Shown in pieces: positions 8,480 to 60,133 of a stretch of 64,000 nucleotides of DNA. Below the pieces are notes generated by a model, which saw only the letters and a list, made by a program, of their open reading frames with translations, was not told where the DNA came from and ran no database searches. The DNA comes from Octopus vulgaris (taxonomy: Eukaryota): assembly GCA_951406725.2 (NCBI GenBank), contig OX597836.1:34472001-34536000 (forward strand), in the 5' to 3' direction. The position numbers were made by a program, and so were the translations under genes. Within the stretch, counting starts at the first letter, position 1, and each line of letters opens with the position of its first letter.

Positions 8480-8872
8480 TAAAATTATAAATTAGGGTAT
8501 CTACGATATACCACCATGCTGAAAATGGATGTATTCGGATGTTGTATTTGTATATATATATATATGTATTTATGTTTCTTTTCTGTGTGTATTCTACTGA
8601 CGAGGCAAAGCATTCCTAAATGCAAAGTCAGAAATCCGGGATCTAGAATTATCCAGTAATTTTTTACTAGTTTCATCTTGTCTCTTTGTTTTCCCTCCGT
8701 GTTGATATATGGACAATTAAGGTGGTTTTAGAGTCAGATCATGGCTGCTATTTTCAGCATGGTGGTATCTTTATACATAATTTTAATAATTATCACCTTT
8801 GAAGGTTATTTTTTCCATGCTGGCCACCTGATAAAATCGTTATTTTATTTTAAATTAACGATCTCATCCTTG
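8480..8872 (+). mobile_element. AT-rich (TA)n-flanked interspersed repeat related to 58680-58830 and 59945-60058
   Basis: Shared ggatc...gaattatcca...gtggttttagagtcag...ctgctatt segments; degenerate CTGACGA at ~8597. Confidence 0.55.
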
Positions 8873-32616: not shown

Positions 32617-33074
32617 CAAAGACAAGGAATTTAATTAAAGATTTTATGTATAATTATAGTAATATGTCCATCTGTTCTGATTTAATTAAATTCTATGTCA
32701 TTGTAGACGCGTGTCTATTCTCGTAGCCCCGGGTAGATCAATCCGTTGTAAGTGAAACAAGGTTATCCAAAAAAAAAAGTCATTCGGAAAATCATTCCTG
32801 TTTTTGGGTCTTCGGTTTATGGCGTGGCCCACTTTAAACACCAACATCTGGTCCTTAGTTAACTCAAGCACAGTCCACTCGGTCTCTTATTTTCTATGAT
32901 TTGTAGTCGTATCTGTGGTAAAAAGATAACTCCCTTCTCTCCCCGCATCAGTCTCAGGGATCCCTGGAAAGAATAACAATAGAATTAATACGTCACCTAC
33001 TTTAAACACCACCATCAAGCCCACAGTAAACTCAAGCGAAGTTCAGTCTGTCACCTTAATTTTGGGTTGTATTC

Positions 33075-33350
33075 CTGGTCAAATGTCGCTAGAAGCTAGG
33101 ATCACCAAGCATAGACTGGCATATTTTGATCATATTATGCGGAGAAAATCCCTGGAGAAGGACATCATGCTCGGAATGGTCAGTGGCAAGAGAGGAAGAG
33201 GCCAACCAAGAACCCGCTGGCTTGACACCATCAAGAGTGATACCGGAATGGACATAGCCAACCCGAAAGAAGCGGCCCAGGATAGAACTGACTGGAGGAC
33301 ACTGATCCATCGAGTAACCGAGAGTCGACTTCGAATGAGCGGATAGATAG
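33075..33350 (+). mobile_element. RTE (BovB-like) LINE 3' end
   Basis: SLEARITKHRLAYFDHIMRRKSLEKDIMLGMVSGKRGRGQPRTRWLDTIK...AQDRTDWR is a typical RTE C-terminus; (GATA) tail. Confidence 0.88.
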
Positions 33351-39627: not shown

Positions 39628-39776
39628 TTATTTATAACACTGAAACAAGCGCATCACTCTCAGCACGTCAGTCATTTCTTAATCGAATAAGCTTGCCAAG
39701 AATGCTACTCAAGTCACACTCACTTGTGCCCGGTTATGCAGCACAGGCAGACAATTGAAACATGCTACCGAGGAGA

Positions 39777-40671
<895 letters not shown>

Positions 40672-40675
<4 letters not shown>

Positions 40676-42597
40676 AAAGACTGGAGCTGGAAAAACTTCA
40701 TCTGCAGACTAACATGAAAACCTCCATTGAAAATCAAAGAGCTGTGGAGGAACAATGGGTAATCAAAAACATCAAACAGAACCCAAAAGTGTTCTATTCA
40801 TATGCAAATAAGCATAGAACCACTGTCTCACCCATTGGACCATTGATTGATGATAACGGCATTCCCCAACACGATTCTAAAGAAATGGCAGAAATACTGC
40901 AGAAACAATACTGCTCTGTCTTCAGTGTTCCCACTGATATTGACGTGAGGGAAACGAACGAAGTTAACTCCCAACACGAAATCGCAGACATAACCTTCAC
41001 TGCCACCGACATCGTAGCAGCAATAAATGAGGTCAAACATTACTCTGCTGTAAGCCCTGATAGATTTCCCGCTAGTCTCCTGAAGGAATGTAGATATCAA
41101 CTTGCAGTCCCTCTGACCAACCTCTGGAGAAATTCGTTAGACGCAGGTTATATACCGAAACAGTTTCTATCCCAGTCGGTCATCCCGGTTTTCAAACAGG
41201 GAAACAGATCCCTCGCAGTCAACTATCGCCCAATCTCACTCACCTCCCACATCATTAAAGTGTTTGAAAGAGTGTTAAGATCAAGGATAGCTGACTTCCT
41301 GGAGACCCACAAACTCCTAAATTCAAATCAGCATGGCTTTCGCTGTGGCAGGGACTGTCTAACACAGCTCTTACACCACATTGAAGATGTACTCAAAGCC
41401 TTGGGAACAGGTTCGAACTCTGACGTCATATATCTTGACTTCAGTAAAGCGTTCGACAGGGTAGACCATAACATCCTACTCTCAAAATTGGCAATTGTTG
41501 GAATCCGTGGAAAAGTTCTACACTGGATTAAGTATTTCCTGGCGAATAGAACACAACATGTTGTAGTTGATGGAGTCCACTCAAACCCAGCAAAAGTCAC
41601 CAGCGGTGTTCCCCAGAGAACTGTTTTGGGTCCGCTACTCTTCATAATTTACGTAAACGACCTTTCCAGTGTCGTACATCACTGCAAAGTGAAAATATTC
41701 GCTGATGACACTAAGCTCCAGCAAATCGTCAATGAAGAAGCAGACCGAACTCAACTCCAGTCTGATCTATATGCTGTGAGTCAATGGGCAGACAGAAACA
41801 AAATGCAACTGAATGAGGGAAAATTTGAGCTGATGCATTTTGGAAGAAATTCCTCACTAAAACAACCATACACTCTTCCTTCAGGGGAACCGCTCACAGC
41901 CTCTAACAATATCAGAGACCTGGGTGTAATTGTTGATGACGATCTCAGTTGGAGTGCACACATCAACAAGAAGGTCGATATAGCTCGTAGGATGAGTTCC
42001 TGGATCTTAAGAACTTTCCGGTCCAGAGAACAAGGTGTCATCATACCACTTTTTTCCTCCTTTGTACGGCCACACCTTGAATACTGCTGCCCACTGTGGT
42101 CTCCTCACACAAGACAAAACATCTCCAGAATTGAGTCATCCCAGAGGGCTCTCACTAAACAAATTGAAGGCATGGCTGCTCTCGATTATTGGGAAATATA
42201 CCGCCAACTTTGCCCAAACGACCTAAACATTAGCTTCAAGGTTCATCCAAGACTTGGACCACGGGCTATACGTCCCCTGCCAAATTCAAGATCACAACAT
42301 ACATGTACACTGCAACATAATTTCTTTTCCTCAACAGGCCCTGCCCTATTTAACATTGTCCCGAGGGAGATCAAAGAGGAAAAGGATCCCATCAACTTTA
42401 AACAGAGTCTGGATAGATTCCTTCAAAGAATACCAGATAAGCCACCCATAATTGGATACAACTCACCCAACAAGAACTCACTACTTGAACAAAACTTGAC
42501 TTAAACAGTATTCGAATAATCCTATCAGGTGGTGCTATTAAGTTAGACATGGCCTGGACCAATCTCTGGTCGAAACATATCTAAGTTTATCTAAGTT

Positions 42598-46363: not shown

Positions 46364-46510
46364 ATATATATATAGGGAGAGTTTATGAAAAAATCAAAAG
46401 ACGAAGACAGGTGGTGTACCAAACATTAAATGTATTAGTATAACGCTCAGGAATAGAAAAAGGCTTTTACGTTTCGAGCCTACGCTCTACTACATAAATA
46501 TATATATAGG

Positions 46511-50021: not shown

Positions 50022-51296
50022 GAGGGACGTTCAATAAGTAATGCCTCTGACCCACTTCCAGGTGTTTGATCTAGTTGAAATTTTGCATGTGCAATTACTT
50101 ATATCGCTATAGATTAGGTGGCAAATTACAGCTCTGAACTAATTATGGTTTCTGATTTACAGGTGTTTGAACTGAGTCAAGTGTGAAATGGAGCCTGTTG
50201 AGTGTCGAGCAGTGATCCGGTTTTTGTATTTGAAAGGACGCACACCACGGGAGACTTTTGATGAAATGAAAGTAACTCATGGTGATGATGCCCCATCATA
50301 TGACCTTGTAAAACGCTGGCATCGTGAATTCAAACATGGTCAGAACTCTGTGGAAACAGCTCCCAGATCTGGTCGACCCCTCCCTGCCATTGATGAGGCA
50401 TCTGTTCGTCAAGTTGAGGCTGCCATTTTGGAAGATCGCCAAATAGCCCATGAGGTCAAGATTAGTACCGGGTCAGTGGAAACTATCATTCATAACCATT
50501 TGCATATGCAAAAGGTGTCTGCCAGATGGATTCCCAGGTTGCTCACGCCTTTCCAGAAGCAAGAACGCGTCGAGTGCTCGAGGATGAATTTGGAGACGTA
50601 CCAAGAAGATGAGTCAAACTTTTTCAAAAGACTGATTACACAGGATGAAACCTGGGTCCATCACTATGATCCAGAGACCAAAGCCCAGTCAATGCAGTGG
50701 AAGCACCGTGACTCACCTCCTCCAAAGAAGGCAATGGTGCAGCCCTCTGCTGGCAAGGTCATGCTCACAGTCTTCTGGGACCAGGACGGAGCAGTGATGA
50801 CAGATTTCCTGGCAAAGGATACCACAATTACAGGAGCCTATCATGCTTCACTTTTGAGGAAATTAAGAGAAGCTATCAAAACCAAGTGGCGGGACAAGAT
50901 CAGCAAAGGCATCCTCCTCCTGCAGGACAACGCTCCGGTCCACAACTCGCGTGTCACCAGATCAGAAGCACAGGCGTGCGGCTATGAACTCCTCCCCCAC
51001 CCCCATACTCTCCTGACCTTGCACCCTCTGATTTTCACCTCTTCCCAGCCATGAAGTTGTTTTTGAAAGGAAAGCGTTTCCCAGATGATGCAGCCTTGAT
51101 TTCTAAAGTCACGTTGTGGATGGAGGACCAAGCTGGGGTCTTTTACAAAAACGGTCTCCAGAGCTGGATCAAACGATGGGAGAAATGCGTAACTCTGAGT
51201 GGTTCCTATGTAGAAAAAGACTCATAACTGTGCCAAGTTCCGTTGCTCTACTGGTATGGGAAGTGAGTCAGGGGCATTACTTATTGAACGCCCCTC

Positions 51297-52180: not shown

Positions 52181-52367
52181 TGGATAGATAGACTCAGACG
52201 CCCAGCTACACAAGCCCTCAAACACAAACACCCATACTCTTAAGAGAAAGACACTAAATGAGCCAGGAAAAACAGTTGTTTGTCGGAAAATTGCAGATGC
52301 CAAGAATGTGTAGAATTCTAATTTAGTAGGAAGTGTTCGTACTAATACATACGTAAATACATACATA

Positions 52368-52406
<39 letters not shown>

Positions 52407-52409
<3 letters not shown>

Positions 52410-53062
52410 CAATAGGGTAATAAGAAATTATTACTACCAGTGGCCTAGCACAAAAACGAATTAGTCATTAGACTATATATTATTCACATAGAAATACAAT
52501 AAGAGGCTTCCAAATAGGAAAGCCTTGTGCTGGAAAGAGCAGTAGAAAACTCAAAACCACCAAATAAGGATAAATTTTCGAAAGAAATGAAAATTAAAAA
52601 CGTTTACCACCTCGATTATTTCCCAGACCATGGTTTCTAACTATTTCCAGCAAAAAAATATTTGCTGAAGGCCAGTTTCATCAGTGGGACAGCCTTTCGA
52701 TTTCAAATACACAACACAGCCAGATCCACATGTAAAACTAACTGGTTGTATATTCTAACTTTTCAGACCACTGCGCAGACGCAGATTATACCTGGCGACA
52801 GAGAGGATGCCGGTAAAAATTTCGAACAAATTTATCGGAGAATATTTAAACATAATAAATAACAATCGGGTAATAAGAAATTATTATTACCAGTGGCCTA
52901 GCACAAAAACGAATTAGTCATTAGACTATATATTATTCACATAGAAATACAATAAAAGGCTTCCAAATAGGAAAGCCTTGTGCTAGAAAGAGCAGTAGAA
53001 AACTTAAAACCATCAAATAAGGATAAATTTTCGAAAGGAATGTAAATTAAAAACGTTTACCA
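52407..53062 (-). mobile_element. 453-bp-period partial tandem element (203-bp direct repeats) containing a hammerhead
   Basis: 52407-52609 repeats at 52860-53062; abuts (TA)n; hammerhead in the unique part. Confidence 0.8.
52621..52688 (-). ncRNA. Type I hammerhead ribozyme
   Basis: Minus: tccca-CTGATGA-aactg...tagtt-a-GAA-ACCATGGT-C-tggga; 5-bp stem I, inner cagcaaa/tttgctg hairpin, GUC site. Confidence 0.7.
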
Positions 53063-53140
53063 TCTGCATCTGCGCATTTGTCGGGTCTTCGCCGTCACAG
53101 CATATCTCCAGAGATCTCGGTCTTTCGTCATAGCCTCTAG
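53063..53140 (-). mobile_element. Short RTE-like 3' end
   Basis: Minus frame LEAMTKDRDLWRYAVTAKTR resembles an RTE C-terminus. Confidence 0.45.
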
Positions 53141-53190
53141 GAGGATATTTGTTGTTCGCTTGAAGCATTGTGTATTGGTTGTAAAATATA

Positions 53191-53773
53191 CGTCTTGAAT
53201 GGCATAACAATGCACTGTAGTAACAACAATGGAGTCTAATAACTGCTACAATTTAATCATCCATAGTCTGATATGGATGATTAATTATAACATTTATGTA
53301 TAGTTATAACATTTATGTATAGGACTTGTCCCAAACTTTGGCATCGAGAATTACACAAATACTAGAACTGGGCGCCACTGCATAGTGCCGAGGACTCCAA
53401 ATTTGCCATCAAGATGTAGGAGAAAATACTGCGATAGCCTGGGCTTCAGAGGTCCACAGCTCTTCAATATCCTCCCGAAGAACCTGAGAGACCTGCATGG
53501 GGTGGGTGCAGATGTGTTTAAAATAAAGCTGGACCTCTTCCTGTCAGGAGTCCCAGATCAACCAACTTCACGGCAGGAGGTGCAGATGAGGGCAGCTGCA
53601 TCGAACTCTCTCATGCACCAAATGGCAATTGCTAAAAAGCACTCATGAAGTAAAATCATGTAGCAACACCGAATGGCGGTACCCCAGCATGGCCACAGCT
53701 CGTGAGCTGAAACTAGATGAAATGAAATAGTCCATTGTTGTTATTATAGTGCATTGGTGTGCCATCCTAGACA
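53191..53773. mobile_element. MITE-like element (~45-bp imperfect inverted termini) enclosing a CR1 fragment
   Basis: gtcttgaatggcataacaatgcactgtagtaacaacaatgga versus tccattgttgttattatagtgcattggtgtgccatcctagac. Confidence 0.55.
53320..53728 (+). mobile_element. CR1-clade LINE 3' fragment
   Basis: GLVPNFG...SLGFRGPQLFNILPKNLR...FKIKLDLFLSGVPDQP...SNSL; (TGAAA)n tail. Confidence 0.85.
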
Positions 53774-57866: not shown

Positions 57867-58827
57867 CTCACACTCACACGCATACACACACTCACACACA
57901 CACACACACACATTTATATATATAATTATATCTTTGTTGAGATACAACACGTATCCATTTAGTGTGGCCAAACAGTGAACCTTAAATAGCTCTTCGAAAT
58001 AATGAGAAAATAACTAACACAAATTATACACATATATATAGGGTGTGGCAGCACTGCAAGGTTGACGAGTGCTTCATTAACTAGCAGCAGGGACTCCGAG
58101 AGAAATTTGTAGAAGTAGAACAACAATGCTTTGGGGGCCAGTAACCAGGGGGTTTCTAAAGGAAATATTTCGTAAAGAGCTGGGGGTTTCAGTTTGATTT
58201 GGGAAGTAACCCGAAAAATAGAGACCCATCTGTGGTTTTCTAGAACCCTGGACGATGTACCGATTGAACCCTTGGTTGCAACCCTTGTTGCTCATTTTAT
58301 GATGATGTATATACTATTGCGTCAATAGTGAAACTCCTTCTCTCTCTCTCTCTTTGTCTCTCTCTCTCTCTCTCACACAAAACACACACACACACACACA
58401 TATTAATCAATGAAATTCCAACTAAGTCTGATTTCCACATTTTATTATTTGCAATTTTTACAATTTTACTATGTGAAATAAACTCGTGCTTTCATGCGTT
58501 ACACAATCATCGGGTTTATATAGAGATAGTCGTGTACCACAATTAACAACAACAACAACACACACACATGTTGTATACATATATATATTTCTTTATAAAT
58601 AAGGATAAGGTCTTTATTTTAATTAACGATCAAATCAAGTAGCAGCATGGGAAGAAAAACCTTAGAGGTAATAATTATTATTAAAATTATAAATAAGGGT
58701 ATCTAAGTGATACCACCATGCTTGAAATAGCAGTCAAAACCTGACTCTAAAACCACATCAAGTATTCAGTACAGTATAAGATGAAAAGACAAATATAGAA
58801 AGTAGTAAAATTTGGATAATTCCAGAT

Positions 58828-58879
<52 letters not shown>

Positions 58880-59123: not shown

Positions 59124-59693
59124 TACCCTTGTGTATATATGTACATATCTAATATTGTATGTATATATTTTATTAATTTGCCTGTATAGCTAATAATTCG
59201 CTTACCACTTGTGATGGTATTTTAATATTACCATCTCTATATTTATTTATAAATAATTTTACGCATTTCGTTTGTTCGTACGGTGCTTGGTCACTTCAAA
59301 CGAACTTTCGCAGGCATTATGGGGGAGAATGTTAGTAGTTATTTAGCTGGCAGACTTTGGCTGATGAGAAATCACGTGCCTGGGTGGCGCTAAATTTCGA
59401 AACCGGTACCGAGTTGACCAGCATTTACTTGTTCTGACCCATTTGAGGTAAGACATTGTTATTGTTCACTGATATTTTTTCCTATCTTGTCTGTAATAGA
59501 TTTGTGACTATTCGGTGGTACAGAAGTATTTTTTGACTTCTATCATTAAAGATATAGGTACTCATGTAGTACCCTTGTGTATATATGTTACATACCTAAT
59601 AGTGTATGTATATATTTTATTAATTTGCCTGTACGGCTAATAATTCGCTTACCACTTGTGATGGTATTTTAATAATACCATCCCTATATTTAT
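59124..59693 (+). mobile_element. 446-bp-period partial tandem element (123-bp direct repeats) containing a hammerhead
   Basis: 59124-59246 repeats at 59570-59693; (TA)n on both sides. Confidence 0.82.
59346..59422 (+). ncRNA. Type I hammerhead ribozyme with canonical core
   Basis: gctgg.cagactttgg-CTGATGA-gaaat...atttc-GAA-ACCGGT-A-ccgagttga.ccagc; G-C at the base of stem II, palindromic stem III, extended bulged stem I. Confidence 0.78.
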
Positions 59694-59817
59694 ATATATA
59701 TATAGGGAGAGTTTACGGAAAAAAACACAAGACGAAGACAGGTGGTGTACAAAACAAACAGATGTATTAGTATAACGCTCAGGAATAGAATATATATATA
59801 TATATATATATTTGTGT

Positions 59818-59858
<41 letters not shown>

Positions 59859-60070
59859 TTTGTGTGTGTGTGTGTGTGTGTGTAATTATGTACGATTCGT
59901 GGTATATTCTATTGACAAAGTATTTTTACACAAAGTCAGAAACCCAGGATCTGGAATTATCCAATTTTTACTAGTTTATTTATCTATTTGTTTTTCCACC
60001 TTATGCTGTATTGAATACTTGATGTGGTTTTAGAGTCAGGTTTTGACTGCTATCTCAAGTGTAGATGCCC

Positions 60071-60133
60071 AGATAACTGAAGAGATGGTGGTGTGGATTT
60101 CCACTTGGGCATCCGAAACTCAGAGTTTTATCT
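60071..60133 (+). ncRNA. Type I hammerhead ribozyme
   Basis: agataa-CTGAAGA-gatg...catc-c-GAA-ACTC(A)GAGT-T-ttatct; 6-bp stem I, GUU site. Confidence 0.68.

Follow-up and report, generated by a model that had tools for sequence, protein, structure and literature searches.

Anatomy of the locus

The element studied here lies in a 64,000-nucleotide stretch of Octopus vulgaris DNA (contig OX597836.1, hereafter the window) and belongs, as a single copy, to a multi-copy family of 453-bp repeats that carries a hammerhead motif (Table 1). Read on the minus strand, a 206-nt truncated copy is followed by a full 453-nt unit and then by (TA)n. The direct repeats formed in this way, 52407-52612 and 52860-53065, have a period of 453 and are identical at 197 of 206 positions, seven of the nine differences being transitions. 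The initial annotation had recorded direct repeats of 203 bp at the same spacing, 3 bp shorter than measured here, and a repeat finder run on the same pair returned 211 nt at 95%. The initial annotation had also placed a (TA)n tract at one end, and this tract indeed adjoins 52407, the 3' end of this copy. The truncated copy begins, by computed offset, 13 nt downstream of the equivalent of the hammerhead cut (53078).

No ORF with a recognisable domain was found in the 453-bp unit, and the element has no ORF for a reverse transcriptase (RT) and a GIY-YIG endonuclease: six-frame translation gave short frames, with no 100-aa ORF inside. The window contains no further copy of the unit, and no target-site duplication is visible at this copy.

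Table 1. Features of the 453-bp element and its immediate surroundings (positions in the window)
Feature	Position	Strand	Basis and remarks
(TA)n/(CATA)n microsatellite	52343..52406	.	likely insertion target; repeat identity stops at 52407
Full unit, 453 bp	52407..52859	-	35% GC; 3' end at 52407; tiled by diverged contigs in four runs
Predicted 3'-terminal hairpin	52416..52438	-	fold; separated from the (TA)n end by a few bases
Possible GU-AG intron, 78 nt	52530..52607	-	sequence only; downstream of the hammerhead
Type I hammerhead motif	52621..52689	-	descriptor, shuffles and folds; predicted cut after GUC at 52626
Long predicted hairpin	52706..52754	-	upstream of the hammerhead; helices of 10 + 7 bp, pair probability > 0.9
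5'-truncated upstream copy (pseudo-LTR)	52860..53065	-	equals the last 206 nt of the unit; 197/206 identity
Internal fragment of an unrelated, very high-copy repeat, 62 bp	53076..53137	-	depth and loose ends; outside the unit

The hammerhead motif

The minus-strand GUC hammerhead, which the initial annotation had put at 52621-52688, was recovered at 52689-52621. Helix I pairs 52689-52685 with 52625-52621 (5 bp), the CUGAUGA box occupies 52684-52678, GAAA lies at 52637-52634 and GUC at 52628-52626, and helix III is formed by the palindrome ACCAUGGU (52634-52627). Helix II is long and branched, and its base is atypical: in place of the usual G10.1-C11.1 pair there is an A facing another A or, alternatively, an additional A at 52638. 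A strict hammerhead descriptor matched twice in the window (52689-52621 on the minus strand and 59361 on the plus strand), compared with a mean of 0.005 over 200 shuffles, and matched none of 5000 shuffled versions of the 453-bp unit. A loose descriptor gave five matches against 0.03 per shuffle; those at 60077 (+), 30925 (+) and 14207 (-) are without a palindromic helix III. A local Rfam scan with E values up to 10 gave no hammerhead match at this element, and for the whole window the 150 matches listed, of 272, were all microsatellite-driven miRNA matches.

The catalytic fold, with a helix III of 2 bp, is predicted at -16.7 against a minimum of -20.6, a cost of about 4 kcal/mol, and self-pairing of the palindrome is predicted to form 8 bp at -11.2. 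The helix III palindrome would thus be suited to cleavage of a dimer, as expected for a dimer-type hammerhead. The locus has only one hammerhead; this copy is therefore probably a dead end, which cannot release unit-length RNA by double cleavage.

Other repeat units in the window

A second partial-tandem unit, with a period of 446 and (TA)n on both sides, is found at 59124-59698 (+). It carries a type I hammerhead at 59361 with the palindrome ACCGGU and a canonical G-C pair at the base of helix II, a 3'-terminal hairpin and, immediately following the hammerhead, a GU donor that looks strong, and its circular fold has a z score of -3.0. The initial annotation had described the two units as unrelated in sequence and nearly equal in length, and both statements hold: on the same strand the best local score is 19 against a shuffle mean of 22, on the reverse complement it is 24 against 20 (14 of 200 shuffles), and the lengths are 453 and 446.

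A third short family is represented by 8481-8800, 59902-60053 and 58674-58829, copies 70-75% alike. Its hammerhead-like core is intact at 8597 and degenerate near 59910; being flanked by (TA)n and carrying its own 3' end once more in inverted orientation, this family is PLE-like (see below). An 86-bp repeat, its start immediately adjoining (TA)n, is present in three copies, 87-90% alike (59703-59790, 46375-46458 and 639-723). The window further contains a mariner-type transposase fragment at 50176-51054 (+) (Pfam Transposase_1, E 4e-21, and HTH_48) and, at 39691-42504 (+), a long frame that resembles a LINE RT and is fused to an (AAT)n tract.

Copies of the unit in public contigs

Contigs of four public runs with three organism labels (X1, X3, X4 and X10) were aligned to 52600-53200, a reference that holds the unit once together with the right flank. 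Part of the stretch was contained in 20 of the 24 runs listed, which come from nine studies and bear four organism labels; none of the runs containing it is recorded as RNA. The aligned contigs, including those of the RTE-like piece in the flank, numbered 2184 (X1), 1874 (X3), 2834 (X4) and 338 (X10), most of them at 90-99% identity, and all 29 bins were covered in each of the four runs. Single variant sites in the unit were seen in up to 65 (X1) and 78 (X4) contigs. The head-to-tail point 52859/52860 was crossed, with no fewer than 31 letters to either side, by 8 of the 32 pieces listed (there are 7261 more); six of these come from X1 and two from X10, with 7-17 differing letters each, and the listed X3 and X4 pieces include none. 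Diverged contigs with overlaps longer than 31 nt (for example at 52639-52744, 52676-52769, 52727-52809, 52746-52859 and 52788-52892) span all of 52600-52938, which means that the whole 453-nt circle exists in copies besides this one.

Strand-changing joints account for 5 of the 11 joints listed, each in one or two contigs; one of them, close to a hairpin, is possibly an artefact. Another joint, leading from 53063 back by 453 to 52611, was rejected as evidence for a dimer since it only reflects the point at which the reference was cut. One X1 piece continues for 44 nt beyond the junction and then departs from the alignment; this copy itself has no 30-40 bp tail of the kind that some non-autonomous PLE copies carry. 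The contigs, which are too short to show a copy with two hammerheads, contain none, and a 25-nt exact pattern had no match in metagenome contigs. T variants at 52863 (10-16 contigs) and 52865 (8-14 contigs) in three DNA-like runs hint that other copies also end in an AT-rich target.

Summed depth climbs into the 3'-end repeat to the right of about 52870, several-fold in X3, X4 and X10 and about twofold in X1; its minimum falls at 52684-52767 in each of the four runs. This profile is consistent with many short, 3'-anchored and 5'-truncated copies. Summed contig depth is not a copy number; divided by 31 times the single-copy depth, it gives a rough and merely indicative bound of at least about 110-150 copies at 52921 and of 5-7 at the junction.

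These contigs also bear on the refuting case named in the initial annotation, a local duplication that occurred only once. If 206 bp had been duplicated in this way next to a hammerhead present by chance or as a relic, shared alleles would be expected, and both repeats do share family-minority alleles (52921, 52940), but a single reverse-transcription event would yield these as well, the same junction occurs in at least six differently diverged contigs of one run, and the shuffles show that the hammerhead motif is not a chance match, so that this reading is rejected as highly improbable.

The right flank

The filler 53066-53075 joins the 5' end of the element to the 62-bp piece at 53076-53137. 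In all four runs this high-copy piece has loose ends at 53075/53076 and 53137/53138, and other copies of the repeat to which it belongs continue with different sequence on both sides. Its translation resembles, by its motif, an ORF end of RTE type; Pfam gave a spurious match only, and the piece does not align to the RTE-like ORF end at 32933-33343, for which the Atlas clusters are unnamed. Since the piece lacks its own 3' end and no remainder of the element lies beyond it, it was probably not inserted into the element. A filler, a jump between templates or a remnant of the target is more likely. The initial annotation had proposed that an RTE-like tail truncates this end; the tail turns out to be an internal fragment on the 5' side of the element and is probably not the truncating agent.

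X3 and X4 contain the junction between element and flank as well, with no difference in 101 letters and with 10 differences in 157, respectively, and in each case the contig is at single-copy depth (12 and 59). This suggests an old orthologous insertion, consistent with the 4.4% divergence between the repeats. One might also see in the adjacent, same-strand RTE-like piece and its shared junction a composite SINE mobilised by an RTE element, with the recognition signal coming from the RTE-like part; this is very improbable, since the piece is internal to its repeat, is without the usual 3' part of that repeat and sits on the 5' side of the element, while a recognition signal of LINE origin would be expected as a tail at the 3' end, and the depth of both junction contigs fits an orthologous locus.

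Farther to the right, a 42-bp inverted repeat (86%; 53192-53233 and 53731-53772) encloses a palindrome at 53239-53297 and, at 53310-53648, what is presumably a CR1/L2-like ORF end. In X4, (TA)n directly borders other copies of 53149-53187, possibly another PLE-type 3' end.

Predicted folding of the unit RNA

Folded as a circle, the unit has a predicted energy of -112.5 kcal/mol (z -4.7 against 60 shuffles) with 61% of its nucleotides paired, and hammerhead helices I and II are free. Each strand of the element is predicted to be more stable than its shuffles (z -4.5 and -5.5), so that the strand cannot be chosen from folding alone. The effect of family variants on pairing was scored for 39 in-unit rows of the 40 variants listed, of 71 in total, on the structure predicted from this copy. 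Transitions at paired sites of the hammerhead strand kept the pair in 9 of 10 cases (0.58 under the null, P 0.03), and in 9 of 9 when the linear fold was used; on the opposite strand the pair was kept in 2 of 8. All four transversions at paired sites break pairs, those at 52715 and 52745 being reciprocal, so that they may restore each other. Variants within the hairpin at 52706-52754 mostly keep its pairs on the minus strand. The pairing test thus gives modest support to selection acting on the minus-strand RNA.

Both units of the window (52407 and 59124-59698) are predicted to form a hairpin just before (TA)n at their 3' ends. By analogy with the element described in PMC11167929, the hairpin at 52416-52438 is a candidate reverse-transcription initiation signal. 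The idea of an intron at 52607-52530, suggested by its GU and AG ends, is unsupported, and the 11 joints listed, including those of run X10 (for which the label RNA is a guess), contain no splice joint for it. This putative intron would lie downstream of the hammerhead, whereas the D. virilis Penelope intron is described as ending on the 5' side of helix I.

Origin of the family

The best explanation is that the 453-bp family is a non-autonomous Penelope-like element (PLE) of the non-LTR retrozyme kind, likely copied in trans by an autonomous PLE; I put the probability of this at about 0.8. Among the hallmarks of PLEs and their non-autonomous derivatives, three studies (PMC8557442, PMC4209133, bioRxiv 10.64898/2026.07.22.740005) name a pseudo-LTR, a type I hammerhead with a palindromic helix III, a (TA)n target and inverted 5' pieces. 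Here, the partial tandem forms a pseudo-LTR that other copies have in common (8 of 32 listed pieces), a type I hammerhead with a palindromic helix III, if with an atypical helix II base, lies near the repeat, inverted 5'-truncated segments occur in some copies (5 of 11 listed joints), and the 3' end of this copy lies in a microsatellite/AT-rich target.

In the mechanism envisaged, the RT and GIY-YIG endonuclease of an autonomous PLE would be supplied in trans, and an RNA longer than the unit (a tandem transcript or a circle) would be bound near its 3' hairpin. The PLE enzyme would then nick (TA)n and begin reverse transcription inside the RNA; synthesis would pass through one unit into the next and stop early, leaving a full unit and a 5'-truncated copy, the pseudo-LTR. 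Candidate templates are a tandem transcript, a circle and a linear RNA cut by the hammerhead. Internal initiation within an RNA stem-loop is reported as demonstrated for an anole element (PMC11167929).

Within the window, there is no autonomous partner with a matching pseudo-LTR. The segment 62561-62779 (+) appears, by its motif, to be a broken and degenerate PLE-RT-like fragment. Its first Atlas matches are unnamed eukaryotic clusters (0.96-0.97), the nearest named cluster being RVT_1 (14%, at 0.90); it has no Pfam match, and none of 41 candidates is a homolog at E 0.001.

From the two units of the window the initial annotation had drawn both a shared mobilisation mechanism and a shared size constraint. 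The former is well supported by the PLE hallmarks; the latter, resting on only two units (453 and 446), is not. Published retrozyme repeats are given as 150-450 bp (PMC7229834), family consensuses as 51-972 bp (bioRxiv 10.64898/2026.07.22.740005) and two axolotl families as 330 and 350 bp, and with such a spread there is nothing unusual about two units of these sizes. Their similarity would be accounted for by a minimal set of cis signals common to both, without any special constraint.

Non-LTR retrozymes of animals, as described in PMC7229834 and bioRxiv 10.64898/2026.07.22.740005, are likewise non-coding, multi-copy units of a few hundred bp with a GC content below 45%, a type I hammerhead, a predicted well-paired circle and a proposed PLE origin; the present unit is short, low in GC (453 nt, 35%) and highly self-paired as a predicted circle (z -4.7). 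It differs in the missing canonical G10.1-C11.1 pair and the long, branched helix II, and, having 1.45 units and one hammerhead, it is a 'monomer' and not 'active' by the rule of the preprint. With EN+ PLEs whose pseudo-LTRs bear hammerheads, namely Penelope/Poseidon, Neptune, Nematis and Hydra (PMC4209133, PMC8557442), the family shares a 5'-truncated copy followed by a full one, inverted 5' pieces in other copies, a minimal hammerhead with a short helix I and a palindromic helix III, and a microsatellite target with no clear target duplication; it lacks their RT and GIY-YIG ORF, and its unit measures 453 bp rather than kilobases. The Chlamys elements, such as MRC1, are also non-autonomous PLE derivatives with pseudo-LTRs and head-to-tail insertions, but are described as mostly without hammerheads and occur in green algae (PMC8557442).

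Compatible with a non-autonomous PLE, and differing in the template, is a classical circRNA-producing retrozyme, whose tandem arrays would be transcribed, cut by paired hammerheads and circularised into abundant 453-nt circles; the locus would then be a rolling-circle cDNA halted at 1.45 turns. The well-paired predicted circle (z -4.7, 61%) with its free helices I and II, the palindromic helix III, the GC content below 45%, a size at the top of the 150-450 bp given in PMC7229834, and the X10 contigs over the whole unit, if the guess that this run is RNA is right, all speak for it. Against this, X10 may be DNA or read-through, the helix II base is atypical, and the locus does not contain the two or more consecutive units, each with a complete hammerhead, that the preprint requires of an active retrozyme; according to the same source, 8 of 9 tested Xenopus dimers remained uncleaved in vitro (bioRxiv 10.64898/2026.07.22.740005). 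A ligated circle has the same GUC-junction sequence as uncleaved genomic RNA, and a read across the cleavage junction therefore cannot prove a circle. On balance, the circle-producing retrozyme is possible but doubtful.

A further, improbable reading takes the locus as what deletion or truncation left of an autonomous PLE, its pseudo-LTR joined to its 3' end with loss of the ORF, rather than as a member of a spreading 453-nt family; most other copies would then be ordinary 5'-truncated ends of the autonomous element. The depth minimum at 52684-52767 in all four runs would fit this, as would the X1 piece that exits 44 nt past the junction and three X3 contigs that exit the alignment 5' at 52736, 52760 and 52785, one with 583 unaligned letters. 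However, exits at differing positions also fit 5' truncation, and the overlaps of diverged contigs across 52600-52938 leave no single deletion point private to this copy.

Implications

The kind of element proposed here is already known, and what the finding mainly adds is one more host for non-autonomous PLEs with hammerheads. For O. vulgaris, 31 recently active Penelope-like families are reported (PMC13282606); the word 'ribozyme' is absent from the main text of that paper. No published description of such a family in cephalopods was found among the papers listed by literature searches, and repeat databases such as Repbase or Dfam may already contain the family.

What the hammerhead does in PLEs is described as unclear (PMC8557442), and in vitro the PLE hammerhead is reported as dispensable (PMC11167929). 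It is, at present, an unlikely reading that the template for reverse transcription of the non-autonomous PLE family is a linear RNA to which hammerhead cleavage in vivo gives its 5' end. The 13-nt offset of this copy fits such a template; it is a single coincidence, as the 59124 unit begins about 160 nt downstream of its own cut. If the family were copied in this way, full copies would be capped at 672 bp (453 + 219) and would never contain two hammerheads, and copies would start at or just after the cut, as this one does. This would argue against a circular template for these units. Because the family is short and high in copy number, the distribution of its 5' ends would let one assembly decide between cleaved linear and circular templates and, if the linear template is correct, hundreds of copies together with several independent families of about 450 nt would for the first time allow what the hammerhead does in PLEs to be read from genomic sequence.
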